Assembly (NCBI GenBank): GCA_001029675.1
Contig: CP011210.1
Span: 64,193-128,192, forward strand
Direction of reading: 5' to 3'
Length of the DNA: 64,000 bases
DNA from: Candidatus Beckwithbacteria bacterium GW2011_GWC1_49_16
GTDB taxonomy: Bacteria; Patescibacteriota; Microgenomatia; UBA1400; CG1-02-47-37
The position numbers and the translations under genes are program-made. Shown in pieces: positions 5,716-59,142 of the stretch (position 1 is the stretch's first letter; every line of letters begins with the position of its first letter). The notes beneath the pieces were generated by a model. That model saw only the letters and a program-made list of their open reading frames with translations. It did not search any database and was not told where the DNA came from.

Positions 5716-7881
5716 TTATTCGATTCTGATGGAGCTGGCGCCGGTTAAGATTTGATCCCGGATAACCTCTTCGGAGCAGTGGTTTTGGGGCTGACTGCCG
5801 GGAACAAAGAACTCGGTGTAGTTAGGACAACCCGAGCAGCCCAGGGTGCCGGTTAGGGGGCAGATGGAGGCGGTGACTACCGATGGCGGGGGAGTGAATT
5901 GGCTGGCAGGTTGGTCTTTTAAGGCTTGTGTCATTAGTTCGTGCCAGATGGGAGTGGCGCCGGTGATACCAGAAGCCACAGCCGCCATGGGGGAGTTGTC
6001 GTTGTTGCCCACCCAAGAAGCGACCAGGAAATCGTCGGTGAAGCCGATGGTCCAGTTGTCGCGTTTGTCGTTGGTAGTGCCGGTTTTGACGGCCACTTGA
6101 TGACCGGGGGTGTTAAGGAGTGAGTTTGCGCCAAAGGCGGGGATACGGGCATTGGCGTCTGACAGGATGCTGGTTAAGATGAAGGCGACGGAGTCTGGCA
6201 AGACCGGGTCGGAGTTGCAGCCAAAGCCGCAGTCAAACTGCTTGAGGGTTTTACCTTCGGCGTCGGTGACCTTGAGAATAGGGTTTAAGTTAACCTTTTT
6301 GCCCTGGTTGGCCAGCGTCCCGTAAACCACAGCCAAATCGGTCATCTTGACCTCGCCGCCGCCTAAGGTCAGCGACAGGCCGAAGCGGCCGGGCTCGTTC
6401 CAGGTGGTGATGCCTAAAGCTTGACCCATGGCGATCATTTTCTCCACGCCATATGAGGCCAGCACCTTGACGGCCGGAACGTTGTAGGAGTTGGCCAGCG
6501 CCTGGTGAAGGCTGACTTGACCGTGGAACTTGCCGTCGTAGTTGATCGGCGAATAAGCTGGTTGCCCCGGAATGTTGTAGGTGACTGGCGAATCCTCAAT
6601 CACCGAGGCGGCAGTATAGCCGTTTTGCAAGGCGACAGCGTAGTTGACCGGTTTGATGGCCGAGCCGGGTTGTCTTGGGCGGGTGACGACGTTGACTTGG
6701 CCGTCTCTGGCTGTATCAAAGTAGTCGCGGGAGCCGACCATGGCCAGAATTTCTCCGGTTGACGGCTTGGTGACTAAAGCGGCGCCGTTGGTGACGTGGT
6801 AAGGGGAGAGGCTGTCGACCTCGCTGGCCACGACGGCCTGGGCTTGTTGTTGCAGATTAAGATCTAAAGAAGTGGTTACCGACAGACCACCTTGTTCAAC
6901 AGCAGCCTCGCCAAACTCCTCAACCAGAGCCTGTTTGACGTACATGACAAAGTGGGGAGCGGAAATGTTTTGGGTTTGGGGAGCAAGATAGACTTTTTGT
7001 TGTTTGGCCAGCTCTGCCTCCAGCGGGGCGATAGATTGGGTTTCGACCAGGCGGTTTAAGACTTGGTGCTGGCGGTGAATGGCCAAGTAAGGGTCGGAGC
7101 CAAAAGGAGAGTAGGCGGTGGGGGCGGCGGGCAGTCCCGCCAGTAGCGCGGCTTCGGCCAGAGTGACGTCTTTGATGGATTTGCCAAAGTAGCTTTCAGC
7201 GGCGGCTTCGGCGCCGTAGGCAGTGCCGCCGTAGGAAACTTGGTTAAAGTACATAGTGAGGATCTGGTCTTTGTCGAATAAAAACTCGACCTCTATGGCC
7301 AAAACCAGCTCTTTGAGTTTGCGGATGACGGTTCTTTCCGGGGTCAACAGGGCGTTTTTGACCAGCTGTTGGGTGATGGTGGAGCCGCCCTGGAGGTCTT
7401 GGTTTAAAACGATTTGACTCAAAGAGCGGGCGATGCCCCGGTAGGAAAAGCCGTTGTGGCGGTAAAAGTCGGCGTCTTCGATGGCCAGGGTCGCCAGCTT
7501 AAAATGCTCGGGGATGTCTGATAGGGGGATTAGGGTGCGGTTTTGGTCCCGGTAAAAGGTAAAGAGCAACTGGCCGTTTCGGTCATAAATTTTGGTTGAC
7601 AGCGACGGTTTTCTGGTGGCAAGATCAGACGGGTGGGGCAGGTCTTTTAAAATAAACCAGTAAAAGAGGTTGCCGGCGATAAAAAGCAGGATGAAGAGGG
7701 TAAGGGTGATGGTTTTAAACCTAAAGTGGGGAAGTTTTAACCGGCGAACCAGTTGAACAACAACTGTGATCAGTTGGGCAACAATATTAAGGAGTAGCAG
7801 GAAAAGCTTGAAGATGGATTTGTAGGTAAACCGGCCGATTTTTTCTAAAACCCGGCCGATAAACCAGAGCGCTCTGTCCAT
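5716..7881 (-). CDS. Bifunctional transglycosylase/transpeptidase, PBP1A family
   Basis: GT51 motifs EDADFYRH and GGSTITQQLVKN; TP motifs QPGSAIK, SYN and KTGTT. Confidence 0.95.
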   Translation of the reverse strand: MDRALWFIGRVLEKIGRFTYKSIFKLFLLLLNIVAQLITVVVQLVRRLKLPHFRFKTITLTLFILLFIAGNLFYWFILKDLPHPSDLATRKPSLSTKIYDRNGQLLFTFYRDQNRTLIPLSDIPEHFKLATLAIEDADFYRHNGFSYRGIARSLSQIVLNQDLQGGSTITQQLVKNALLTPERTVIRKLKELVLAIEVEFLFDKDQILTMYFNQVSYGGTAYGAEAAAESYFGKSIKDVTLAEAALLAGLPAAPTAYSPFGSDPYLAIHRQHQVLNRLVETQSIAPLEAELAKQQKVYLAPQTQNISAPHFVMYVKQALVEEFGEAAVEQGGLSVTTSLDLNLQQQAQAVVASEVDSLSPYHVTNGAALVTKPSTGEILAMVGSRDYFDTARDGQVNVVTRPRQPGSAIKPVNYAVALQNGYTAASVIEDSPVTYNIPGQPAYSPINYDGKFHGQVSLHQALANSYNVPAVKVLASYGVEKMIAMGQALGITTWNEPGRFGLSLTLGGGEVKMTDLAVVYGTLANQGKKVNLNPILKVTDAEGKTLKQFDCGFGCNSDPVLPDSVAFILTSILSDANARIPAFGANSLLNTPGHQVAVKTGTTNDKRDNWTIGFTDDFLVASWVGNNDNSPMAAVASGITGATPIWHELMTQALKDQPASQFTPPPSVVTASICPLTGTLGCSGCPNYTEFFVPGSQPQNHCSEEVIRDQILTGASSIRIE

Positions 7882-8884: not shown

Positions 8885-11125
8885 TTAACTGGCAACAGGG
8901 TTGATCGTGTAGGCGGACTCTTGGGGTTCGCCTTTTTCGTTTAAGGGTTTTTCGCAAGTTAGGCAGTAGTCTTTTTGGACCGGGTCTGACAAGATGATGT
9001 GTTCTTGGAGTTCTAAGTTTTCGGTCACTCCCGGCTCGGGAGGACGTTTGGTGGTGGTGTCGATCCAGATGCCGCGTTTTAAGGGCGGTTCCATGGCCGG
9101 CTCGTTGCCACGGATAAAGTATTCAAAGCGGGTTTCGCAAGGTGATTCGGGGTTGGGCCTTAGGCCGGTGATAGTGCAGACTTGAAGGCCGATGATGTTT
9201 TCCGGCCTGACCGGCCATTCGTCGGGTTGATCCTCTAGGATACCGGCCATGATGTCGTGCCAGATGGGGGCGGCGCCGGTAATGCCCGAGACTAAATAAG
9301 GGTGCATCGGGCTATTGTCGTTGTTGCCGACCCAGGCGGCGACCAAAAATGACGGGGTGTAGCCGATAGTCCAGTTGTCGCGCAAATCGTCGGTGGTGCC
9401 GGTTTTGACCGAGACGGCGTGGTTAGGAATGACCAGCTCGCTTGAACCCCCGAAGGCAGCCAGGCGAGCGTTGTTGTCAAGAAGAATATGGGAGATAAGG
9501 TAGGCGACTTCGGGGGAAAGGGCTTTGTCACCGGCTGGAAGCTGGCTAGCTAAATCGATTTGTTCTAGGGTGTTGCCTTTGAAGTCTTCGACTTTGAGGA
9601 TGGGGGTGAGGTCGACTTTTAAACCCTGGTTGGCAAAGACGCCAAAAGCCACAGCCATGTCGACCATTCTGACCTCGCCGCCGCCCAAGGTTAAACTCAA
9701 GCCGTAGTTTGACGGATCTTCCCAAGTATTAATACCCATAGCCGAGGCAGTGGCGATCATGGTTTCGACGCCATTGGCGGCGAGCATCTTGACGGCCGGG
9801 ATGTTGAAGGAGTTGCCTAAGGCAAAGCGCATTTGCACCGGGCCGTGGAAAGCGCCGTCGTAGTTACGGGGGCAATATAGGGGTTGGCCGGAGACGGCAA
9901 AACAAACGGGCACGTCCAGAAACATGGTCGAGGGGGTAAAGCCTTGGCCTAAGCCGGCGGCGTAGTTGACCGGTTTGATCGACGAGCCGGGCTGGCGCAA
10001 ACGGGTGGTGACGTTGACGTTGCCGTCGATTTCCTCATTGAAATAGTCTTTGGAGCCGACCATGGCCAGGATCTCGCCGGTTCTGGGGTGGGTGACTAAA
10101 GCGGCGGCGTTTGAAACGTTCAAGTTTTCAAGCTTCCCGGTTTCGGTGGCGATAACGTCTTCGGTCAGCTTCTGAAGGTCAAGATCCAAAGAGGTAGTGA
10201 CGCGCAGGCCGCCTCTTTCGACCAGCTGCTGGCCGTATTTATCAACCAGCAAGCTTTTGACGTAAAGGACAAAGTGGGGGGCTAAAATGTTTTGGGTTTG
10301 GGGGGCGTAAGTTAAGGGAGCGTCAAGAGCCTGTTGGTATTGATCTTGATCGATGTAGCCGTCTTCGAGCATGCGGCTTAATACCTGTTTTTGGCGGTTT
10401 TTGGCGGCTTCGGGGTCGGGGCCAAAAGGGGAGTAGCGGGTGGGAGCCTGGGGTAGTCCCGCCAAGAGCGCCGCTTCGGCTAAAGTCAGCTCGCGGGCGG
10501 CCTTGCCAAAGTAAGTTAAAGCTGCCTGCTCGATGCCGTAGGCAGTGCCGCCGTAGGGGACGTGGTTTAAATACATTTCTAAGATGTCGTCTTTAGAGTA
10601 GCGAACCTCGGTGGCAAAAGCCAAGATAGCCTCGCGGATTTTTCTTTTGATGGTGCGTTCGGGGGTTAAAAGCGTGGTTTTGACCAGCTGCTGGGTAATG
10701 GTGGAGCCGCCTTGGAGGTTACTCTTAAAGACGATGTTGACGGCGGCCCGGGTGATACCTTCCCAGGCAAAGCCGTGGTGGCGGTAAAAGTTTTTGTCTT
10801 CTATCGCCACGGTGGCATTTTTGACGTAGCCAGGGAGCCCTTCAAGTTCAATCGGGGTGCGATTTTGGTCGGCAAAGATTTCGTAAAGTAACTTCCCGTT
10901 TCGATCCAGAATTTTAGTGGAGACGGGGAAGTTACCGGCAGCCAGCCGACCCGGGGAGGGAAGGTCGTGGAAGATGACAAAGGTAGAGTAAAGACCGACG
11001 AGGATTGCGAGGCCAACAAGAAGAGCCTTTTTAGGCTGGGCACGATAGAATTTTTTAAGCCTTAAAAGGATTTTTTGCCAGAATTTCTTTTGGAGAAGTT
11101 TCTTTAAGTCTTTAAATTTTGGCAT
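8885..11125 (-). CDS. Bifunctional transglycosylase/transpeptidase, PBP1A family (second paralog)
   Basis: Motifs EDKNFYRHHG, GGSTITQQLVK, QPGSSIK, SFN and KTGTT. ATG at 11125 follows a -10 box. Confidence 0.95.
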   Translation of the reverse strand: MPKFKDLKKLLQKKFWQKILLRLKKFYRAQPKKALLVGLAILVGLYSTFVIFHDLPSPGRLAAGNFPVSTKILDRNGKLLYEIFADQNRTPIELEGLPGYVKNATVAIEDKNFYRHHGFAWEGITRAAVNIVFKSNLQGGSTITQQLVKTTLLTPERTIKRKIREAILAFATEVRYSKDDILEMYLNHVPYGGTAYGIEQAALTYFGKAARELTLAEAALLAGLPQAPTRYSPFGPDPEAAKNRQKQVLSRMLEDGYIDQDQYQQALDAPLTYAPQTQNILAPHFVLYVKSLLVDKYGQQLVERGGLRVTTSLDLDLQKLTEDVIATETGKLENLNVSNAAALVTHPRTGEILAMVGSKDYFNEEIDGNVNVTTRLRQPGSSIKPVNYAAGLGQGFTPSTMFLDVPVCFAVSGQPLYCPRNYDGAFHGPVQMRFALGNSFNIPAVKMLAANGVETMIATASAMGINTWEDPSNYGLSLTLGGGEVRMVDMAVAFGVFANQGLKVDLTPILKVEDFKGNTLEQIDLASQLPAGDKALSPEVAYLISHILLDNNARLAAFGGSSELVIPNHAVSVKTGTTDDLRDNWTIGYTPSFLVAAWVGNNDNSPMHPYLVSGITGAAPIWHDIMAGILEDQPDEWPVRPENIIGLQVCTITGLRPNPESPCETRFEYFIRGNEPAMEPPLKRGIWIDTTTKRPPEPGVTENLELQEHIILSDPVQKDYCLTCEKPLNEKGEPQESAYTINPVAS

Positions 11126-47880: not shown

Positions 47881-48750
47881 ATGGACCAGTTTGACCCTAA
47901 AGTTTTAGCCCAGCTTTATCGGCCTCCCAAAGATTCACACAAAGGCCAGAACGGCAAGCTACTTTTGATCGGCGGGAGCCAGTTGTTTCATGCGGCCAGC
48001 ATGTGGTCTTTGGAGGTGGCCAGCCGTATCGTCGATATGGTGTTTTACTTTAGCGTGCCGGTCAATGAAGCCATCGTCAAAAAGCAGAAGGAAAGATTTC
48101 ACGACGGCATCGTCGTCCCCCAAGGCGAGGTGGAAACGTATCTTGGCGAGGCCGATTGTGTACTTATCGGCCCGGGGATGGAACGGGGCAAAGAAACAGA
48201 GGAGAAAACCAACAAGCTTTTGAAAAAATATCCTGACAAGCGCTGGGTGATTGACGGCGGGGCTTTACAGATGATGGATCCCGGATTACTCAACGAGCGA
48301 ATGATTGTTACCCCACATTTAAGGGAGCTTAGAGGTTTGATAGATCGTTCCGGAAGAAAATTGCTAATTTCTAAATCCGAATTTCTAAACAAATTCAAAT
48401 TTTCTAAGGACCAAATATCTAAAATGGCCGATTTTTTGGAAGATTTTTCGAAGGTCTATGGTGGGGCGACAGTGGTGCTTAAAGGGCCGACGGATGTGGT
48501 TTGTGATGCCAAACAGTGCGTGCTTAATGTTACTGGTAACGAGGGGATGACCAAAGGGGGAACGGGTGACGTGTTGGCGGGGTTGGTTGCCGCGCTTTAC
48601 TGCAAATCGCCCGCTTTTTTGGCGGCCTCGTGCGGCGTTTATCTTAACGGTTTGGCCGGCGACCGGCTTTACAGCTTGGTGGGTGCTTACTTTAACGCTT
48701 CGGACCTGGTCCACGAGATTCCCAAGGTAATGGCGGAAGTTTTAGGTTAG
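47881..48750 (+). CDS. nnrD: ADP-dependent NAD(P)H-hydrate dehydratase
   Basis: SHKGQNG.LLLIGGS, IGPGM, TPH..E, VVLKG..D and KGGTGDVLAG. Confidence 0.9.
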   Translation: MDQFDPKVLAQLYRPPKDSHKGQNGKLLLIGGSQLFHAASMWSLEVASRIVDMVFYFSVPVNEAIVKKQKERFHDGIVVPQGEVETYLGEADCVLIGPGMERGKETEEKTNKLLKKYPDKRWVIDGGALQMMDPGLLNERMIVTPHLRELRGLIDRSGRKLLISKSEFLNKFKFSKDQISKMADFLEDFSKVYGGATVVLKGPTDVVCDAKQCVLNVTGNEGMTKGGTGDVLAGLVAALYCKSPAFLAASCGVYLNGLAGDRLYSLVGAYFNASDLVHEIPKVMAEVLG

Positions 48751-51700
48751 TTGGCCTGTTTATTGGCATTATTTAATCTTTTTAACTAAGTCATTTAGAT
48801 TAATTGTTTCTTTAAGGCTGCTTAGTTTTTCTAAGGCTTCAGCCTCTATTTGTCTAATTCTTTCCCTGGTTAACCCAAACGCATAACCAACTTCTTGTAG
48901 AGTGTAGAAGACGCCGTCTTTTAAACCATACCTCATTCTAAGAATCTCAGCCTGCCTTGGAGAAATGTTGTTTTGGGAAAGGAGAGTATCTACTTGATGT
49001 CTAATTACTCTTTGGAGTGCTTCTCTTTCGGTGTCCACATTGGGGTCTTTAGTTGTGTCTAGCAGAGTTCTTTCGTCATCTCCAGGGGCTGATGCCTCGA
49101 GTGAAATAGGATACACTCTTTGTAGCAAGGCCTGAATTCTTTCAACGGGAATGTTTGTTTTCTCCGAGATAAGCTCTTCAGAGACCTGTTTTTGTTCTTT
49201 CTCGATTTCTCCGATAGCTCTTGTAATTTGAGTAAAAAGCTTGTTGTCGTATGTTGAAAGTCCCCTGTCTTGAGCCAAAAGGGCCCTCATTTCATTTTCG
49301 ATCCAGTAGGTAGCGTAAGTTGAAAGTTTTACCCCTTTTCTCCAGTCATATTTGTTAATTGCTACAAGTAAGCCTATATTTCCTGTCTGATAAAGGTCAA
49401 AAGTTGATGGCTTAGCTCCTCTTTTTTTAAACCTACTGGCTAAAAAGAAAATCCAACGTTGCATAGATTTAATTAGAGCATCTTTGGCTTCTTGTCCACG
49501 CAGAACAAATTGTTCTAGGTTTTGACTATCTGGATGTTGAGGGTTGTTCTCGATTGTTTCTTTGGCTAGCTCGCCACGCTCGATCTCTTTAGCAAGGGCT
49601 ATTTGTGTTTGTAGATCGTACGTTTGGTAAAGATTTACCCTCCGGCCTATTTCTGTGGGGAGGTCAATGGTGTCATAGTCTTCTTCTTCGGCAACCGTAA
49701 TGCCCGATCTTACCCTGGCAAGAATTTCCGCCAGCACTTGATGTTCCTGGGTAGTTGTTTCGTCTTCAACAGGGAAGGCAGAGGACTTTCGGAGAGAAGT
49801 TAGATATTCTTCGTCAAAAATGTACTCAAAATCATCTGGGAAGTTAAGCAAAAGCAACTCTCTAACGTCGAGAGGTGCCTTAGAGTAAAGATAAGATTTT
49901 AAGCTTGAGATTACACTGCTTGTTAGGGTCTCTGGGAGTTCTTGTAAACCATCTTCTAAAAAGAGTTGCAAGTGTCTGGAAAAAGTATGGACTAAGGTGT
50001 AGTATTTTCCTAAATACGGCTTTCTTTTTTCATCTGTTTTTTGTTCAAGTTTGATGTTTTCCTCGTCAAAAAAGAATAAAAAATTCCAAAAGGTTTCGTT
50101 TTTTGCCTTAAACATTTCTAGATCTTGACGGAGTTCTTCCCAAAAGTCTTTTGTTTCTAGTGTCTGAATCCATTGTTCTGGAGAAACTCGCGGCCTAATA
50201 AAAGATACTTTTTTCTCCAGCTCTTGCTTAGCCATTCGTATTGCTTGAATTAATTCTGGTTCGTAAGGAAGGGTAGGAGTGAAGTTGCGGATAAAATGTC
50301 CAGCGCTTTCGGTGTGCCTTTCTAGCGCATATAGGAGGTTGAGATAGTATCCTGGAGTAGATGGATTAATCTTGCCGCCGTTGTTTTCATTTCTTGAAAA
50401 ACCCCTCATAAAGTTAGTGAAATAGGTGTTCTCTGGTATGGTTTTAAGGTCTTGATATAGTTGCACCCAAAAAGCCTCTGTATGGAGTTCTTCATAGTAG
50501 TCTCGCCAATTTTTTTTAATAGGAGTTTCTATAAGTTTCTCTATTAAATTAAGCTGAATTTTTGCTACTAAATCCATGACTTCTTGTTTTTGTGGTTGAT
50601 ACTCTGTGAGATATTTATATGGATATCTAATGCCAGATTTCCTGAGAGCCAAAACCAAGTTATAGTATTTACCGTTAGTGTAATTATCTCTTTCTGCCCA
50701 GTTTGGGTTATCGGGATCGTAGAGGCTAAAAAACTCTCTTTGGGTATAGGCTTTTTTTGGTAGCTGGTCGAGATCTTCTTGAATTTCCAGCCATAAATCA
50801 TGGGTTTCCAGTTGGGCTAAATAGTGTTCTTTTGGCAGGCAAGTTGGAGGAAGTAAATCTTCTGGTTGTGAAAAATCAACCGCTAACACTGGTCTTTCAA
50901 CTTGCGGTTTATCCAGAGTTGGAAGCAGATAAAAGACAGCCTTACCGTCTTGGTGTTTTATTATCCTGCCCGATTCTGATAGATGTTTTAACACCGGGGC
51001 AGTTTTTTTTCCGTATCGTTCCTTTAAATCTTTTGGTCTTGTGGGACCATACTCAATTAAGTGGTCAATAATTATATCTGCGTTTTCTTCTTTGGTTATT
51101 TTTTCGTTGTGTCTTCTGTAGTTTTGTATGGCTTTTTCGGTTATTGAGGGGTCATTCTGAATTTTTTCTAGGGTTTCATTCATGGTTGTCAATTGTTGAG
51201 TGTGTCCAGAAACGGCCGCTAGTATAGGCCTAATAATTGTTTCTACAAATTCTGTTCCCTTCGGGGTTATATGGGTTATTGATTGTTGAACACCGCCAGT
51301 CCACTTTTTTGTTTCAAGGTAACCAGATTCAGCTAATTCTGAAAAAATAGTGTAAACATCCGAGGCATCTTGTCTGCCGAGAGCCTTTAGAACGCTTGGG
51401 ATATTTCCTTCTTCATTTACTTCAAAGTATTTAATAACATTTTTTCTTAGTCGGTTAAGTCTTGGGGAATGGGTTGCAAGATTTTTAGGCCCTACTCGCT
51501 TATATATAAGCCAACCTTTTTGCTCCGTGTCTACAGCCTCGTGATTTATTAATCCTAGGTCGTTTAGGGATTTAAGATTGCCCCTGATAGAGGAGAGATC
51601 TGAGTTTAATGTTCGGCATAACTCGATTTCAAAAGAACTTTTTTGATTAAGGGTTAAAAGTATAGCGCTTCTGGTGATATGAGCTCTGTTGCCACTTGAA

Positions 51701-52281
51701 GTTATTGGTTGACCGAAGATTTTAGACGCAGGAATGTCTTGACTGGCAGAATACTCCAACAACAATGCGGCTATTGGTTTGGCGTAGTTTTCTGCTTCTA
51801 AAGTAAGCTGGTATCCTTTGTTTGTTTTTTGAGCTAAGCCTGTAGGGAGCAGAGAATTAATCAAATATGACATATATATAGAGTTACTTTTTGGATACCA
51901 TGTGGAATAGCCTATACAGTCTCGGGTGCGTTTTCTTAGAGAAGAGACCGAAATAGGTTCAGGAGCGAAACCATGAACAACTAGTGCTTGTTTGGGTTCT
52001 GCTGTGCCGAGGGCGAAGATAACTCTGTCAAATCTTCTTAGGTGTTCTGGCCCAATTTTCGAACCTTCAAGGTTGTTGAGCAATGATTCTAAGTTAGATT
52101 GTTGCCACGTTGTTTGGCCGATTTCGCTTTGACCACGATTTTCCACTAGCATAGTTATCTGGGCGGATTTGAAAGATTATACCACTTGAGGAAAGTTAAA
52201 TATGCCAAGACTGCCGGTCCTATTTATTATTCTGCTTTGGTCCACGAGATTCCCAAAGTGATGGCGGAAGTTTTAGGTTAG
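48707..52281. mobile_element. Inserted ~3.5-kb lower-GC island bounded by 44-bp direct repeats (48707-48750 and 52238-52281)
   Basis: TGGTCCACGAGATTCCCAA(G/A)GT(A/G)ATGGCGGAAGTTTTAGGTTAG, 42/44 identical. It encloses only the giant sigma-like gene and no integrase. Confidence 0.7.
48769..52152 (-). CDS. 1127-aa multidomain protein: winged-HTH array, three ~108-aa repeats and an RpoD-type sigma70 module
   Basis: C-terminal DLYQTGNIGLLVAINKYDWRKGVKLSTYATYWI (region 2), PISLE (region 3) and RYGL.DG...TLQEVG..FGLTRERIRQIEAEALEKL (region 4). Confidence 0.85.
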   Translation of the reverse strand: MLVENRGQSEIGQTTWQQSNLESLLNNLEGSKIGPEHLRRFDRVIFALGTAEPKQALVVHGFAPEPISVSSLRKRTRDCIGYSTWYPKSNSIYMSYLINSLLPTGLAQKTNKGYQLTLEAENYAKPIAALLLEYSASQDIPASKIFGQPITSSGNRAHITRSAILLTLNQKSSFEIELCRTLNSDLSSIRGNLKSLNDLGLINHEAVDTEQKGWLIYKRVGPKNLATHSPRLNRLRKNVIKYFEVNEEGNIPSVLKALGRQDASDVYTIFSELAESGYLETKKWTGGVQQSITHITPKGTEFVETIIRPILAAVSGHTQQLTTMNETLEKIQNDPSITEKAIQNYRRHNEKITKEENADIIIDHLIEYGPTRPKDLKERYGKKTAPVLKHLSESGRIIKHQDGKAVFYLLPTLDKPQVERPVLAVDFSQPEDLLPPTCLPKEHYLAQLETHDLWLEIQEDLDQLPKKAYTQREFFSLYDPDNPNWAERDNYTNGKYYNLVLALRKSGIRYPYKYLTEYQPQKQEVMDLVAKIQLNLIEKLIETPIKKNWRDYYEELHTEAFWVQLYQDLKTIPENTYFTNFMRGFSRNENNGGKINPSTPGYYLNLLYALERHTESAGHFIRNFTPTLPYEPELIQAIRMAKQELEKKVSFIRPRVSPEQWIQTLETKDFWEELRQDLEMFKAKNETFWNFLFFFDEENIKLEQKTDEKRKPYLGKYYTLVHTFSRHLQLFLEDGLQELPETLTSSVISSLKSYLYSKAPLDVRELLLLNFPDDFEYIFDEEYLTSLRKSSAFPVEDETTTQEHQVLAEILARVRSGITVAEEEDYDTIDLPTEIGRRVNLYQTYDLQTQIALAKEIERGELAKETIENNPQHPDSQNLEQFVLRGQEAKDALIKSMQRWIFFLASRFKKRGAKPSTFDLYQTGNIGLLVAINKYDWRKGVKLSTYATYWIENEMRALLAQDRGLSTYDNKLFTQITRAIGEIEKEQKQVSEELISEKTNIPVERIQALLQRVYPISLEASAPGDDERTLLDTTKDPNVDTEREALQRVIRHQVDTLLSQNNISPRQAEILRMRYGLKDGVFYTLQEVGYAFGLTRERIRQIEAEALEKLSSLKETINLNDLVKKIK

Positions 52282-53122
52282 GCAGGGCGGCGGCCAAAAC
52301 GATCAAGGCCCCGCCCAAGAAAGTGGTGGCAGAGAGAATTTCGCCGAAGAATAAAAAGCCAAAGAGGATGCCGAAGATAATTTCAGCCATGCCGATAAGG
52401 CTGCCGATAGAGGCTTCTAAATATTTGAAGCCTTCAATCACTGAAAAGTTGGCGATCAAAAGCGCAGCGGCGTAGGCGGCGGCGGCTAGCCAAGCGGAGT
52501 GGGCGGAGATAGGGGGAAGAGAGTCTTTAACCAAGTAGGCGATCAGGCCATTGGCGACGAGCATAACGGTGAGATAGCCGGCCATGATTTGGAATTCGTG
52601 ATACTGGCCTGACAATTTTTTAGGCAAGACTGCTGAAATTGCCCCCATGAGGCCGGCGATGATGGTTAAGGTAGCCGGCCAGATTTGAGCCGGAGTCAAG
52701 GAAAGGCGGTAGATTACTCCTAGGCCGGCAAGACCGATGACCAGGCTTGTCAGTTTGGTTCTGGTCAGGGTTTCGTTGAAGACGAGTTTGCCGATAAGGT
52801 AGCCGCCGATGACCAGAGCGGCGTAGAATAAAAGGGTGGCGGTGCCAACCCCAAGGTGTTGGAAGCCGTAGTAATAAGGGGCTTGATTTAGGCCGATTGA
52901 GGCAATAACCAAAAACCAAGGCCAGTCTTTTTTAGGCATGGGTTTGAAGAGTTTTTTCCATTTACCGACCAGGACTACAAAGACCAATAAGATTAAGCCC
53001 CTGGTCCAGGCTTGGCTAAATTCGCCAAAGTCGTGGCCCATGAGGTGCGACCAGACGCCGTAGGTGGCAAAAAAGACAGCCGAGTTTAAAATCCAGGCAG
53101 TACCTTTTGTTTTTGGGTTCAT
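52220..53122 (-). CDS. DMT/EamA family transporter
   Basis: About 10 TM helices in two EamA repeats; EASIGSLI..AE and GEILS....GGALI. Confidence 0.9.
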   Translation of the reverse strand: MNPKTKGTAWILNSAVFFATYGVWSHLMGHDFGEFSQAWTRGLILLVFVVLVGKWKKLFKPMPKKDWPWFLVIASIGLNQAPYYYGFQHLGVGTATLLFYAALVIGGYLIGKLVFNETLTRTKLTSLVIGLAGLGVIYRLSLTPAQIWPATLTIIAGLMGAISAVLPKKLSGQYHEFQIMAGYLTVMLVANGLIAYLVKDSLPPISAHSAWLAAAAYAAALLIANFSVIEGFKYLEASIGSLIGMAEIIFGILFGFLFFGEILSATTFLGGALIVLAAALPNLKLPPSLWESRGPKQNNK

Positions 53123-53163: not shown

Positions 53164-53985
53164 ATGTCCGAACAAACAGACAATTTGGTTTCACTTTTGA
53201 CGCCGTATGGCCTAAGCGCTGATGAAGCCAGAGTTTATCTTGATTTGTGGGCCGGCGGCAGCAACTCAGCCTTGGGTATAAGCGGTAATGTTCACTTGGC
53301 CAGAACCAAAGTGTACCGGATTTTGGACAAGCTTAATAAAATGGGCTTGGTGGTAGTAAGGCTCCACTCGCGTGGTCAGAGGTTTGAGGCCAGCCACCCC
53401 AAAAGGATAGGGGTCCTGGTTGAAGAGAAGGAAAAACAAGCGGAGGCGTTGAAGGCGAGTTTGACGATGGTGGTGGGTGAGTTAGACAAGATAGGCAGAG
53501 AGAGAAGGGGAGTTTCTAAGGTGCTTTATTATCAGGGGCCGGAAGGTTTAAAGCAGGTAACCTACAACTCGCTTAAGGCTCGCGGCGAACTTTTGACCAT
53601 GGAGATTGAAACCATGAACGCTTTTTTTGACAAAGACTATGCCGAGAAGATGCGCTTGAAGTTTGTTGAGCGGCAAATTACCTCCAGGACTTTGACTAAC
53701 GTGACCAGGTTAGCGCCGTGGACTGAAGTGGCGGGGGAAATGGTAGAAAAATATTGGCAGATTCGTCATATTCCGGCGAGTCAAATGAAAATAAAGTTTG
53801 AGATTTTGATTTATAACGACGTTTACGTCATGTACCGCTACCAGGGCAGGGAAGTGTTCTGCGTGGAGATTTATAACCAGGAGTTAGCCGATATGCAGCG
53901 GCAGATTTTTGAGTATATGTGGGCCAAAGCCGGGAAGTTTAAGGTATTAAACCGGCGGGGCGAGGCGGTGCTTGACAAACCATGA
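53164..53985 (+). CDS. TrmB family transcriptional regulator
   Basis: YGLS.DEARVY..L...RTKVYRIL.KL..MGLV; C-terminal effector domain ILIYND. Confidence 0.85.
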   Translation: MSEQTDNLVSLLTPYGLSADEARVYLDLWAGGSNSALGISGNVHLARTKVYRILDKLNKMGLVVVRLHSRGQRFEASHPKRIGVLVEEKEKQAEALKASLTMVVGELDKIGRERRGVSKVLYYQGPEGLKQVTYNSLKARGELLTMEIETMNAFFDKDYAEKMRLKFVERQITSRTLTNVTRLAPWTEVAGEMVEKYWQIRHIPASQMKIKFEILIYNDVYVMYRYQGREVFCVEIYNQELADMQRQIFEYMWAKAGKFKVLNRRGEAVLDKP

Positions 53986-54010
53986 AGTGTTACTTTATAC
54001 TTTATGGTAT

Positions 54011-54988
54011 ATGCGGAATTGGTTGGCGATTTTGGCGAAAAAGAAAGAGAGGCTGGATCGCATGAGGTCCTTGCCCCAAGCCCAGGAAAAAAACCTGGCT
54101 GATTGGTTGCGGGTGGAGCTGACTTATACTTCTAACGCGATTGAAGGCAACACTTTATCCAGGCAGGAAACGGCACTGGTGGTGGAAAAAGGCTTGACGG
54201 TTGAGGGTAAAACCTTGAGAGAACATCAGGAAGCAATAAACCACGCCGCGGCTTGGGAGCTGACCAAAAATTTGGCAAGGGAGGGCAAGAAAATTACCAC
54301 TGGGGCGATTTTAGAGATTCACCGATTGATTTTGAATCAGCTTGATGAGCCAAGTGCCGGCAGGTTTCGCCGCGGCCCGGTGAGAATTGCCGGATCGAGA
54401 GTGGTTTTGCCTAATGCGGTCAAAGTACCGAAACTCACGGATAAACTGGTTAACTGGTTGACTACCACCAAAGACCAGCCGGTAAAAGTCGCCGCCGAGG
54501 CCCATTACCGTTTAGTGACTATTCATCCATTTGTGGACGGCAATGGCCGGACCGCCAGGCTAGTGATGAATCTGGTTTTGCTAAAAGCCGGCTATCCGGC
54601 GGCCATAATTAGAAAGGAAGAGCGGTTAAAGTACCTTAACTCCCTGGAAAAAGCCCAGCTGGGTGGAAGCGGTGATGATTATTACCAGTTGATTTACGCC
54701 GCGGTTAACCGGTCGCTTGATCTTTATCTTGAGGTGGCCGGGGCTAAAGCTAGAAAGACATCCACAAAGAAACAACGGTTAAAAATTGGCCAGCTAGCCA
54801 GTTCAAGCGGGGAAAGTATATCTACTATCAGATTTTGGACCAAAGCGGGTTTGTTGCCCGTGGCCGGTCGTACCCGGGGCGGCTATCAGCTTTATAGCCG
54901 GGATGCAATCAAGCGAATTAAACTGATCCGCAAACTACAGCAGGAAAAGCGCCTGACGATTAAAGAGATTAAGAAGGAAATTAGTTGA
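54011..54988 (+). CDS. Fic-domain protein with a C-terminal MerR-type HTH
   Basis: SNAIEGN inhibitory motif, HPFVDGNGRTAR catalytic motif, and KIGQLA......STIRFW...GLL....R..GGY.LY. Confidence 0.9.
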   Translation: MRNWLAILAKKKERLDRMRSLPQAQEKNLADWLRVELTYTSNAIEGNTLSRQETALVVEKGLTVEGKTLREHQEAINHAAAWELTKNLAREGKKITTGAILEIHRLILNQLDEPSAGRFRRGPVRIAGSRVVLPNAVKVPKLTDKLVNWLTTTKDQPVKVAAEAHYRLVTIHPFVDGNGRTARLVMNLVLLKAGYPAAIIRKEERLKYLNSLEKAQLGGSGDDYYQLIYAAVNRSLDLYLEVAGAKARKTSTKKQRLKIGQLASSSGESISTIRFWTKAGLLPVAGRTRGGYQLYSRDAIKRIKLIRKLQQEKRLTIKEIKKEIS

Positions 54989-57203: not shown

Positions 57204-58376
57204 ATGAAGTTTAATTTAGCCAAATTGGGAAAAAAGTTTTTGGGGGTGAAGTGGACAGCGGCGATAGCGGTGGCGGCTGCGGCGCTTATCTCATGGCAAG
57301 GTTGGCAGTTTGTCAGCTACAGCCGGCAGCTTTCGGCCAACTGGTTTTCGACCCTGGGGAGACTTGATAGTACACGAGGGGAGTTAGCCGAGCTTAAAAG
57401 CCAAGACCAGTATGTGGTCAACCAGGAACTTAAGGCGCAAATCGAGCAAACCGGCAAGGCTTTTGGCGGCATGGGGGATTTACTCGAGCTTAAAAGCGAC
57501 TACGAGCAGCAAAAGATTGAGTTGGGAGCCCTAAACGATAAGTTTGTGGAGATTTTCAGAAAACTTTCTGAACTAAAATACGACGAGGCAGGGAGTTTAG
57601 CCGCAGAGGTTAAGGGAGAGATGGAGAAAAAGCTAGCAGAAGCGGTAGCCGAAGTGAACATTAGTGTCGCGGCACCGGCGTCAAACGAACTGCCCGGCGG
57701 CGGCTACTCGCGCCAGGTGGTGACTACCGACCGGGGCCAGTTTACTGTGGCCATGGTAGTGGCCGAAGGAGCCCAGGTGGTGGTGGACACGGCCGCAGAC
57801 GACAACTGCGCCAATAACTGTCCCACTTTGCCTTTGGGTGAGTTTGTGGCCAGAAACGGCGGCTTTGCCGGCATCAACGGCGGCTACTTTTGCCCGGCAG
57901 ATTACGCCGGTTGCGCCGGTAAAGTTAACAGTTTTGACACCATGGTGATGCGGACGCGCGACAAAAAGGTATTTAACCGGGACAACAACGTTTACTCGAC
58001 CGTGCCGCTGGTAGCCATGAACGGTGCCAGCGTTAACTTTTACGGCCGGACTTTGGATTGGGGAGTGGGCAGCGGTACTGGCGCGGTGGCCAACTACCCG
58101 ATGCTAGTTTCCGGTGGGCAGGATGTGGTCAACGAGGGGGCACTCGATGCCAAAGCCGCCGCCCGGGGGCCAAGGGGTTTTATCGGAAACCGCGGCGGCA
58201 AAGTGATTATCGGCCACGTGTTGTCTGCCACCATCGGTGAGGCGGCGAAAACATTGGCGACTTTGGGGGTGGAAACGGCCCTAAACCTTGACGGCGGCGG
58301 TTCGGCGGCTTTATGGTCCGGCGGCTACAAAGTCGGCCCGGGGCGGAGTTTACCGGTGGCGATAGTGCTTAAATAG
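57204..58376 (+). CDS. Membrane-anchored phosphodiester glycosidase (NAGPA/DUF2233) family protein
   Basis: TM plus coiled coil; INGGYF, PR.FIG and ALNLDGGGS. Confidence 0.85.
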   Translation: MKFNLAKLGKKFLGVKWTAAIAVAAAALISWQGWQFVSYSRQLSANWFSTLGRLDSTRGELAELKSQDQYVVNQELKAQIEQTGKAFGGMGDLLELKSDYEQQKIELGALNDKFVEIFRKLSELKYDEAGSLAAEVKGEMEKKLAEAVAEVNISVAAPASNELPGGGYSRQVVTTDRGQFTVAMVVAEGAQVVVDTAADDNCANNCPTLPLGEFVARNGGFAGINGGYFCPADYAGCAGKVNSFDTMVMRTRDKKVFNRDNNVYSTVPLVAMNGASVNFYGRTLDWGVGSGTGAVANYPMLVSGGQDVVNEGALDAKAAARGPRGFIGNRGGKVIIGHVLSATIGEAAKTLATLGVETALNLDGGGSAALWSGGYKVGPGRSLPVAIVLK

Positions 58377-59142
58377 TTGTTGTTCGATTGCGGTTGAGGT
58401 TGAAAATCAGCGAGGCTCTGATCCGGCTATGTTTGGTTCTACCAGTTTCACACTCAAGCATAAGGTAGATGTGGGTAAGGTAGTTGCGTGCGGTAATAGG
58501 GGAAATATTTAGTTGTCGCCCGATTTCCTGGTTGCTCAAGCCTTGGCTAACTAACTTGAGAAGATTGATTTGATGCTGCGTGAGCCGACTGAGGTGAGGA
58601 ATTTTAGCGGTCTCTGGCATGGTCGACGCGGCCTGAGGAGTGATCAGGCCGGTTTCTAAGGCAACGGCGGCCAGTTGGACTCGGTTGACGGCCCCAAGTT
58701 TTTCCATAGCTGAGTTAAGCCAAGAGGCGACGGGGCTTTTTCCTCTTATAAGTGTGCGAGTTATTTCCTGGTAAGTTTTGTCTCTGATTGCCAGGATGGC
58801 AGTGGCATATTCTGTCGGGCTTAGACCATTGCCGTGGTTTTTAATGGTTTGCTCTAGCGGTTTCCGGGCGTTTGAGTCAGGGAGTAAGTGTTTGTACCAA
58901 GAAATAAAGTTTTTGTCGTCCACTTGACCGACAGTTGACATAAGTTCGGGCTTTAAGGTGTCTATAAGCGAAGTGGCTGGTTGGCCGCTGACTAAGGCAA
59001 GGAAGACGCTGGCGGTGTGGAAGTCAATAGAGTCCCAGCCGAAATGGCCTTTAATGGTTTCTTCTGGCCGCAGGGTTCCTTCCCGAACTCCGTTCAGGCT
59101 ATGGTGAAGAAAATAGCCTGGCTGACCTTCAATAAATCCCAT
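58369..59142 (-). CDS. Tandem LuxR-type HTH regulator without a receiver domain
   Basis: LSPTE...KLGAVNRVQLAAVALETGLI and LTQHQ..LL.LVSQGLSNQEIGRQLNISPITARNYL..IY. Confidence 0.75.
   Translation of the reverse strand: MGFIEGQPGYFLHHSLNGVREGTLRPEETIKGHFGWDSIDFHTASVFLALVSGQPATSLIDTLKPELMSTVGQVDDKNFISWYKHLLPDSNARKPLEQTIKNHGNGLSPTEYATAILAIRDKTYQEITRTLIRGKSPVASWLNSAMEKLGAVNRVQLAAVALETGLITPQAASTMPETAKIPHLSRLTQHQINLLKLVSQGLSNQEIGRQLNISPITARNYLTHIYLMLECETGRTKHSRIRASLIFNLNRNRTTTI

Follow-up and report, generated by a model that had tools for sequence, protein, structure and literature searches.

We uncovered a potential DNA-anchored transcription factor in Candidatus Beckwithbacteria bacterium GW2011_GWC1_49_16, an ultra-small bacterium belonging to the Candidate Phyla Radiation (CPR; class Microgenomatia, order UBA1400), in which an array of winged helices, three helical repeats and a C-terminal sigma70 module are joined in a single chain of 1127 amino acids (aa). 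It is encoded on the minus strand by an open reading frame (ORF) at positions 48769-52152 of the window, by which we mean the whole 64,000-nucleotide stretch of contig CP011210.1 (positions 64,193 to 128,192) that was analyzed. Our preferred reading, which is drawn from sequence comparisons and held tentatively, is that the protein would tether RNA polymerase (RNAP) to DNA through its own array by means of a captured and dispensable sigma, rather than act as a free promoter-opening sigma.

A first-pass annotation had taken the ORF as one long gene; it is indeed free of internal stops and contains the motifs quoted there, in a genome of 1.05 Mb, one contig and 48.9% GC. An assembly fusion is ruled out, because in each of 4/4 runs (possibly the source samples) the complete gene lies on one contig, with 0 differences, and full-length homologues exist. 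The protein is laid out as follows:

48769..52152, minus strand: 1127-aa gene with winged-helix array, three helical repeats and sigma70 module; GC 0.394, GC at third codon positions (GC3) 0.34
52063..52152, minus strand: acidic N-terminal leader, aa 1-30
51748..52050, minus strand: aa 35-135, a conserved domain near the N-terminus that may be a divergent winged helix, without statistical support
51478..51705, minus strand: ArsR/TFE-like winged helix, aa 150-225, its wing also TFE-like (profile matches)
51217..51471, minus strand: winged helix, aa 228-312, MarR/PadR-like (profile matches)
50911..51120, minus strand: winged helix, aa 345-414 (profile matches)
50518..50838, minus strand: repeat 1, aa 439-545, all-helical, without a Pfam family (repeat hidden Markov model, HMM)
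50191..50514, minus strand: repeat 2, aa 547-654 (repeat HMM)
49876..50187, minus strand: repeat 3, aa 656-759, then conserved capping helices to about aa 775 (repeat HMM)
49477..49665, minus strand: degenerate sigma region 1.2 and a 42-aa spacer of Anaerolineae length (alignment)
49270..49476, minus strand: sigma region 2, aa 893-961, with 2.3 mostly retained, 2.2 altered and 2.4 lost (Pfam)
49021..49230, minus strand: sigma region 3, aa 975-1044, under the Pfam cut-off, with region 3.0 lost
48823..48963, minus strand: sigma region 4, aa 1064-1110, with the -35 recognition helix intact, 21/27 identical to RpoD (Pfam)

The DNA-binding part of the protein is recognized at the level of both the family and the single unit. 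When a profile built from 105 array members is compared with the PDB, winged helices of solved structure are matched by three segments (about aa 150-222, 230-310 and 350-414), and the archaeal TFE (1q1h, E 3.6e-9) is the best match, ahead of SmtB. The units at about aa 150-225, 228-312 and 345-414 match one another with 93-95% HHalign probability, and the three match ArsR, MarR and TFE structures. Among the same 105 members, ArsR-type models match 66, HTH_5 56, TFIIE_alpha 17 and the TFE model TIGR00373 8; TFE is the best PDB match for unit 2 only, no match to a second domain of TFE was seen, and we do not class the protein as a TFE. Winged helices 2-4 are basic, with isoelectric points of 8.3-9.4. 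Several winged helix-turn-helix (HTH) segments had previously been claimed for the N-terminus: three are supported, and the fourth, at aa 35-135, stays putative, with HHalign probabilities of only 2-14% against the array units. A single-sequence fold of aa 1-431 reached a predicted local distance difference test (pLDDT) score of only 36.7, unusable as a model of the array, and the ESM Atlas returned only sub-0.9 winged-helix leads for the N-terminus. Elsewhere in this genome the array profile finds single helices only, in 3 other ORFs.

The three repeats, previously placed at starts that map to aa 443, 551 and 659, are statistically sound: their pairwise scores are 75, 88 and 64 (z = 8.7, 10.1 and 6.9), with 0/2000 shuffles as high and a best off-diagonal score of 58 in 30 shuffles of the whole protein. 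They are not visible in a plain BLASTP self-comparison. With an iterated repeat HMM, 59 copies are recovered from 26 of the collected proteins, and the other ORFs of this genome have none; the repeat region gave no convincing match in 400 CPR genomes (4 weak matches, 2 of them with stops). In some proteins (P0102 and P0131) the repeats are fused only to a C-terminal HTH-like tail; in the 1148-aa protein P0045, a repeat at the N-terminus is followed by a helicase C-terminal-like domain. Modeled from a 28-row alignment, aa 425-790 fold into three all-helical units with a pLDDT of 91.4 and a predicted TM-score of 0.74. Foldseek with this model yields nothing at E<=0.001 in the PDB or BFVD, and VIA-align against 48,161 chains gives a best Z of 4.5 (62 residues, root-mean-square deviation 3.4) to generic helical repeats and none at Z>=5, both searches barely covering repeat 3; a PDB sequence search gave no clear match, no sensor family or fold was matched, and the ESM Atlas returned nothing for the repeats. 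The model thus predicts a confident repeat fold lacking a clear structural match; these searches neither assign it to a known helical repeat such as HEAT, ARM or TPR nor show a new fold.

The sigma module looks selectively worn. Pfam recognizes region 2 (PF04542, 43.7 bits vs a cut-off of 24, aa 893-961) and region 4 (PF04545, 48.2 bits vs 24.1, aa 1064-1110), and TIGR02937 scores 76.9 vs 42.9; region 3 lies under the Pfam cut-off, and ahead of regions 2-4 come a region 1.2 that is degenerate and a long spacer. The RpoD_Cterm model TIGR02393 gives 145.7 against a cut-off of 354, vs 390.7 for the genome's own RpoD. Identities to that RpoD are 4/25 in region 1.2, 4/16 in 2.1, 8/16 in 2.2, 13/18 in 2.3, 2/12 in 2.4, 0/12 in 3.0 and 21/27 in 4.2; the RpoD-like regions 2-4 noted earlier are therefore intact in the helix of 4.2 and not in 2.4 or 3.0. 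The tryptophan dyad of region 2.3 reads YW, and region 2.2 keeps its Q and N, with its L and E positions changed (F918 and T923). Across close relatives, region 2.4 shows no shared new sequence.

A word-indexed search found the protein itself alone, and the resulting reading as an orphan was overturned by a full HMMER scan with aa 1-790, which recovers 224 proteins at E<=0.001. Our tally of architectures covers the 149 matches listed, without the self hit. In 119 of these the array stands by itself (a few are fragments), 12 combine it with repeats without a sigma match (three possibly partial), 7 fall under the array threshold, and 11 carry array and sigma, with 0, 1, 2 and 3 repeats in 3, 1, 3 and 4 proteins, respectively. 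Thus, the fusion of a sigma to its own DNA-binding module noted in the first-pass annotation is real and recurs. One homologue (OGG31449.1) is annotated as Gottesmanbacteria. Among 400 genomes of the class, one of which (G646) is unpublished and counted in the denominator only, 15 have a match that covers 138 or more profile positions; in the 17 regions from these 15 genomes a single ORF exceeds 520 aa, and it is identical to the sigma-less P0008. Full-length matches are limited to the class among 301 genomes of the phylum, 0/251 Chloroflexota genomes match the array at E<=1e-11, aa 1-790 have no phage match, and when one homologue was used for a pattern scan of metagenomes, nothing but the locus of that homologue came back. 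The members are solo genes at differing junctions, most with a TATAAT-like box near the start.

Over this family the sigma module declines from 342 down to 142 bits, then to remnants and then to nothing, being absent or a remnant in 7/11 of the three-repeat relatives among the matches listed. In the four closest members its regions are 23-39% identical, vs 41-47% for helices 2-3; for comparison, 8 RpoDs of the order are 81% and 7 Anaerolineae sigmas 56% identical among themselves. The DNA-binding array is likely the conserved core of the family and the sigma an optional, fast-evolving passenger or tool. Because the -10 determinants of RpoD are lost here and the module decays family-wide, it probably does not open promoters as a normal sigma does.

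In our preferred reading of a factor tethering RNAP, the basic winged helices would choose the DNA site, the repeats would serve as a spacer of variable length or as a binding arm, and the sigma module would still dock, probably weakly, on the beta-prime clamp. Region 4.2 could then read a -35 element, a standard or extended -10 element would no longer be read, and the polymerase would be held or redirected at array-bound sites. This fits slightly better than a dead appendage, because the -35 helix and the aromatics of region 2.3 survive and recognition of the -10 element is gone. Two observations weigh against it. We take F918 and T923 to be the positions of E. coli L402 and E407. PMC3326312 gives L402F and E407K among the substitutions that alter sigma-core interactions, so that core binding may be gone here. 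Moreover, the three closest relatives have an eroded region 4.2 (6-8/27), and -35 reading would therefore not be conserved in the family.

These points lead to the strongest competitor, a possible account that we nonetheless regard as unlikely, in which array and repeats, as a DNA-binding protein, are the working unit and the sigma is a decaying passenger that was gained when read-through fused the protein with a captured gene and is being lost. The smooth gradient of scores, the sigma-less or remnant state of most three-repeat relatives, the changes at two core-contact positions and the fact that the sigma regions are not more conserved than the array are all as this account would have it. 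However, a 300-aa module is kept open and complete in 11 relatives (of the matches listed) at <50% mutual identity, and the wear on this copy, which has spared 2.3 and 4.2 but erased 2.4 and 3.0, seems to be selective and not uniform.

The phylogenetic affinity of the module appears to lie outside the genome's own RpoD. In 200 genomes of the order, its four best matches are extra RpoD-like genes (350-550 aa) and not RpoD. From 20 of the listed loci picked by score or length, plus the genome's own two sigma genes, we obtained 14 accessory sigmas and 8 RpoDs, and compared them with a reference set of sigmas, the 80 best from a sample of some 600 loci: 14/14 accessory sigmas nest with Anaerolineae (Shimodaira-Hasegawa-like approximate likelihood ratio test, SH-aLRT, 95), apart from the RpoD of the order (99). 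A second tree holds 12 family sigmas, two partial ones being left out and three long-branched accessory sigmas dropped, and places 10/12, including that of the 1127-aa protein (P0001), inside the Anaerolineae clade (SH-aLRT 96). For the comparison with the genome's RpoD proposed in the first-pass annotation, we ran an approximately unbiased (AU) test on 31 rows, in which a grouping of the family with that RpoD is rejected at p=0.0415, which is borderline, with an SH-aLRT of 93 for the clade. The spacer between regions 1.2 and 2.1 is the clearer of the two grounds on which we rejected derivation from the own RpoD: it has 42 aa here, 39-43 in the family and 43-48 in Anaerolineae, vs 17 in 8/8 RpoDs of the order. 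Likewise, group HMMs score the module at 192 bits for Anaerolineae, 178 for Actinomycetota and 138 for its own order. The donors were probably paralogues of RpoD, since dnaG is not in the fetched flanks of 7/7 Anaerolineae sigma loci and each of 5 such genomes checked has at least two long sigma ORFs; the RpoD gene of the present genome adjoins dnaG.

Based on these comparisons, capture of the sigma module from Anaerolineae is likely. Several results count the other way: the trees come from quick searches and have very long branches, and in them the sigma of the 1127-aa protein taken alone is unplaced and 2/12 family sigmas group with other CPR RpoDs; spacers of similar length are found in many Actinomycetota sigmas and in other phyla; and the scores of single sequences over regions 2-4 barely tell Anaerolineae (mean 128.5) from other CPR RpoDs (127.4). 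As CPR and Chloroflexota are sister phyla according to PMC13293708, the module may also still be an old paralogue.

Free sigmas of this type are found alongside the fused ones. The present genome encodes a second RpoD-like sigma (G000:C1:258439-260034, L032), 531 aa long and extended at the C-terminus by a tail of about 120 aa, which groups with Anaerolineae sigmas apart from the genome's RpoD. In relatives, the loci L041-L044, L046-L050 and L052-L055 encode free accessory Anaerolineae-type sigmas of 320-662 aa with variable extensions at differing junctions; that of L041 has a duplicated region 4, and L041 and L054 lie between direct repeats of 38 and 32 base pairs (bp), respectively.

An Anaerolineae-like sigma that is not the cell's own lends an argument to the earlier idea of an RNAP-hijacking effector. 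In its explicit form, the protein would be exported into a Chloroflexota host, where the host-type sigma would engage the host RNAP and the array would aim at or block host genes. We consider this improbable, and likewise doubtful its extension to the class as a whole, which would repeatedly capture sigmas of Anaerolineae hosts, fuse them to array and repeats, and deliver them to the host to seize or redirect its RNAP. The Anaerolineae affinity shared with all the free accessory sigmas sampled from the order, the solo genes at differing junctions and a VirB4-like ATPase gene adjoining dnaN in this genome would suit such a role, and the fast evolution and shuffling of modules would fit an effector repertoire. 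The acidic leader also points this way, glutamate being found at positions 2-5 in 83/128 family members vs 36.6 expected from interior windows; in this genome it is found there in 26/111 low-GC vs 43/449 high-GC genes, and the leader may be a signal that CPR solo genes have in common. However, we came across neither a paper that names a host for this class nor a validated secretion signal; the type IV secretion system of CPR bacteria is proposed in PMC12102498 to import DNA and not to export; uptake of host DNA alone suffices to explain host-type genes without delivery; and the Anaerolineae relatives, with their dnaG-less fetched flanks, appear to be paralogues.

A functional alternative sigma gated by the repeats, through signal sensing or masking until release, is very improbable: the repeats do directly precede the sigma module and are neutral to acidic, vs the basic sigma regions 2 and 4, and the changed region 2.4 could reflect a new promoter specificity rather than a loss, but because the repeats number 0-3 in sigma-bearing members, persist without sigma (both among the matches listed) and occur fused to HTH or helicase-like domains, the signal-gated sigma once proposed finds no support, and the failure of the repeats to match a sensor family or fold and of close relatives to share a new 2.4 sequence tells against it too.

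The gene itself is a low-GC insert between duplicated gene ends, its GC3 comparing with 0.57-0.65 in five adjoining core genes. Two direct-repeat copies of 44 bp, overlooked in the first-pass account of the locus, bracket it, and both differences between them are synonymous in the frame of the dehydratase gene. The features around and within the insert are:

47881..48750, plus strand: flanking NAD(P)H-hydrate dehydratase gene, intact
48707..48750, plus strand: left 44-bp copy, with which the NAD(P)HX dehydratase gene ends (3' end)
52176..52184, minus strand: extended -10 like motif TGGTATAAT within the insert, a putative own promoter, 23 nucleotides before the ATG
52238..52281, plus strand: right 44-bp copy (95% identity), which supplies the 3' end of the convergent EamA gene
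52220..53122, minus strand: flanking EamA transporter gene, intact

No -35 element matching the TGGTATAAT motif was found, and a two-hexamer promoter scan did not flag the motif. Empty junctions, with the dehydratase and EamA genes side by side, occur in 2/29 dehydratase loci of relatives; contigs of four runs show neither an empty site nor an excision joint, although contigs drop rare variants. We rejected a self-mobile element because the 1127-aa gene is the only ORF in the insert, which lacks a recombinase gene. The genome encodes ComEC, and recombination through a short homologous copy of the end of the neighboring gene is the likely route by which the gene arrived. Elsewhere in the family, a bracketing repeat is retained in 1/17 regions (47 bp, 98%), and the gene for P0003 is bracketed by a 25-bp repeat (88%).

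A genome-wide scan found 14 further repeat pairs of 24-118 bp around stretches of up to 5.1 kb with GC <=0.425, some of the pairs being tRNA ends or palindromic elements. Solo low-GC genes between direct repeats include a 1648-aa orphan (G000:C1:805321-810267, L031; 30-bp repeats) without an NCBIfam match, in which the eye can make out an HExxH motif toward the N-terminus and, toward the C-terminus, one that is kinase-like, and the genes at G000:C1:514408-516231 and 475741-477075, between 65-bp and 53-bp repeats, which encode a 607-aa orphan and a 444-aa P-loop protein, respectively. Within the dehydratase gene, window positions 48357-48407 are an in-frame insert at which the alignments of many relatives break and which is matched by many unrelated contigs (summed depth up to 900 in one bin); this suggests a widespread repeat element inside a coding sequence. 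Further genes in the window include one for a 257-aa protein (58369-59142, minus strand, opposite to its neighbors) in which Pfam recognizes two LuxR-type HTH domains and no receiver domain, one for a Fic domain fused to a C-terminal MerR HTH (53972-54988, plus strand), and tandem paralogues at 5986-7494 and 9305-10816, about 3.3 kb apart and 68-77% identical in several blocks.

Our literature searches returned no description of the array family, though gene tables in supplements could mention it. Three elements thus lack a description in these searches: the class-restricted winged-helix array family, with >100 divergent members; the 105-aa helical repeat, with its confident predicted fold and no clear structural match; and the repeated carriage of Anaerolineae-type sigmas, free or fused, by this CPR order, which would be a lead to the host of the lineage whichever mechanism holds. 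RNAP would be aimed or blocked in a new manner by a sigma that is joined in one chain to a DNA-targeting module of its own; if delivery to a host were true, one bacterium would be using a transcription effector on another, and the protein would point, at the molecular level, to the host of an uncultured class.

Comparison with known systems places the protein between several of them. Like the group 1/2 sigma70 factors (RpoD/SigA/SigB), it has regions 1.2, 2, 3 and 4 in order and an intact -35 helix, and among these the RpoD paralogues of Anaerolineae are closest, sharing the spacer length and the loop of region 4; unlike them, it has an 820-aa N-terminal fusion, has lost 2.4 and 3.0, and is altered in 2.2. 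Each winged-helix unit matches ArsR/SmtB, MarR or archaeal TFE, the wing motif of TFE included, but here three or four units follow one another in a chain and form a 400-aa family of their own. MzaA, the sigma70 protein of the MZA anti-phage system (NF041931), is likewise a long protein with a C-terminal RpoD-like module, but the match is to the sigma part only (135 bits vs a cut-off of 800), and the gene here is solo, without partners. The mode of entry resembles homology-facilitated recombination in natural transformation in its short, slightly diverged copy of a gene end, the lack of a recombinase and the presence of ComEC, though most family loci are without a visible repeat. In the appropriation of sigma by phage T4 (AsiA/MotA), a winged-helix DNA binder and the sigma together redirect the host polymerase; here, in contrast, binder and sigma are part of one chain, encoded in a cellular genome.

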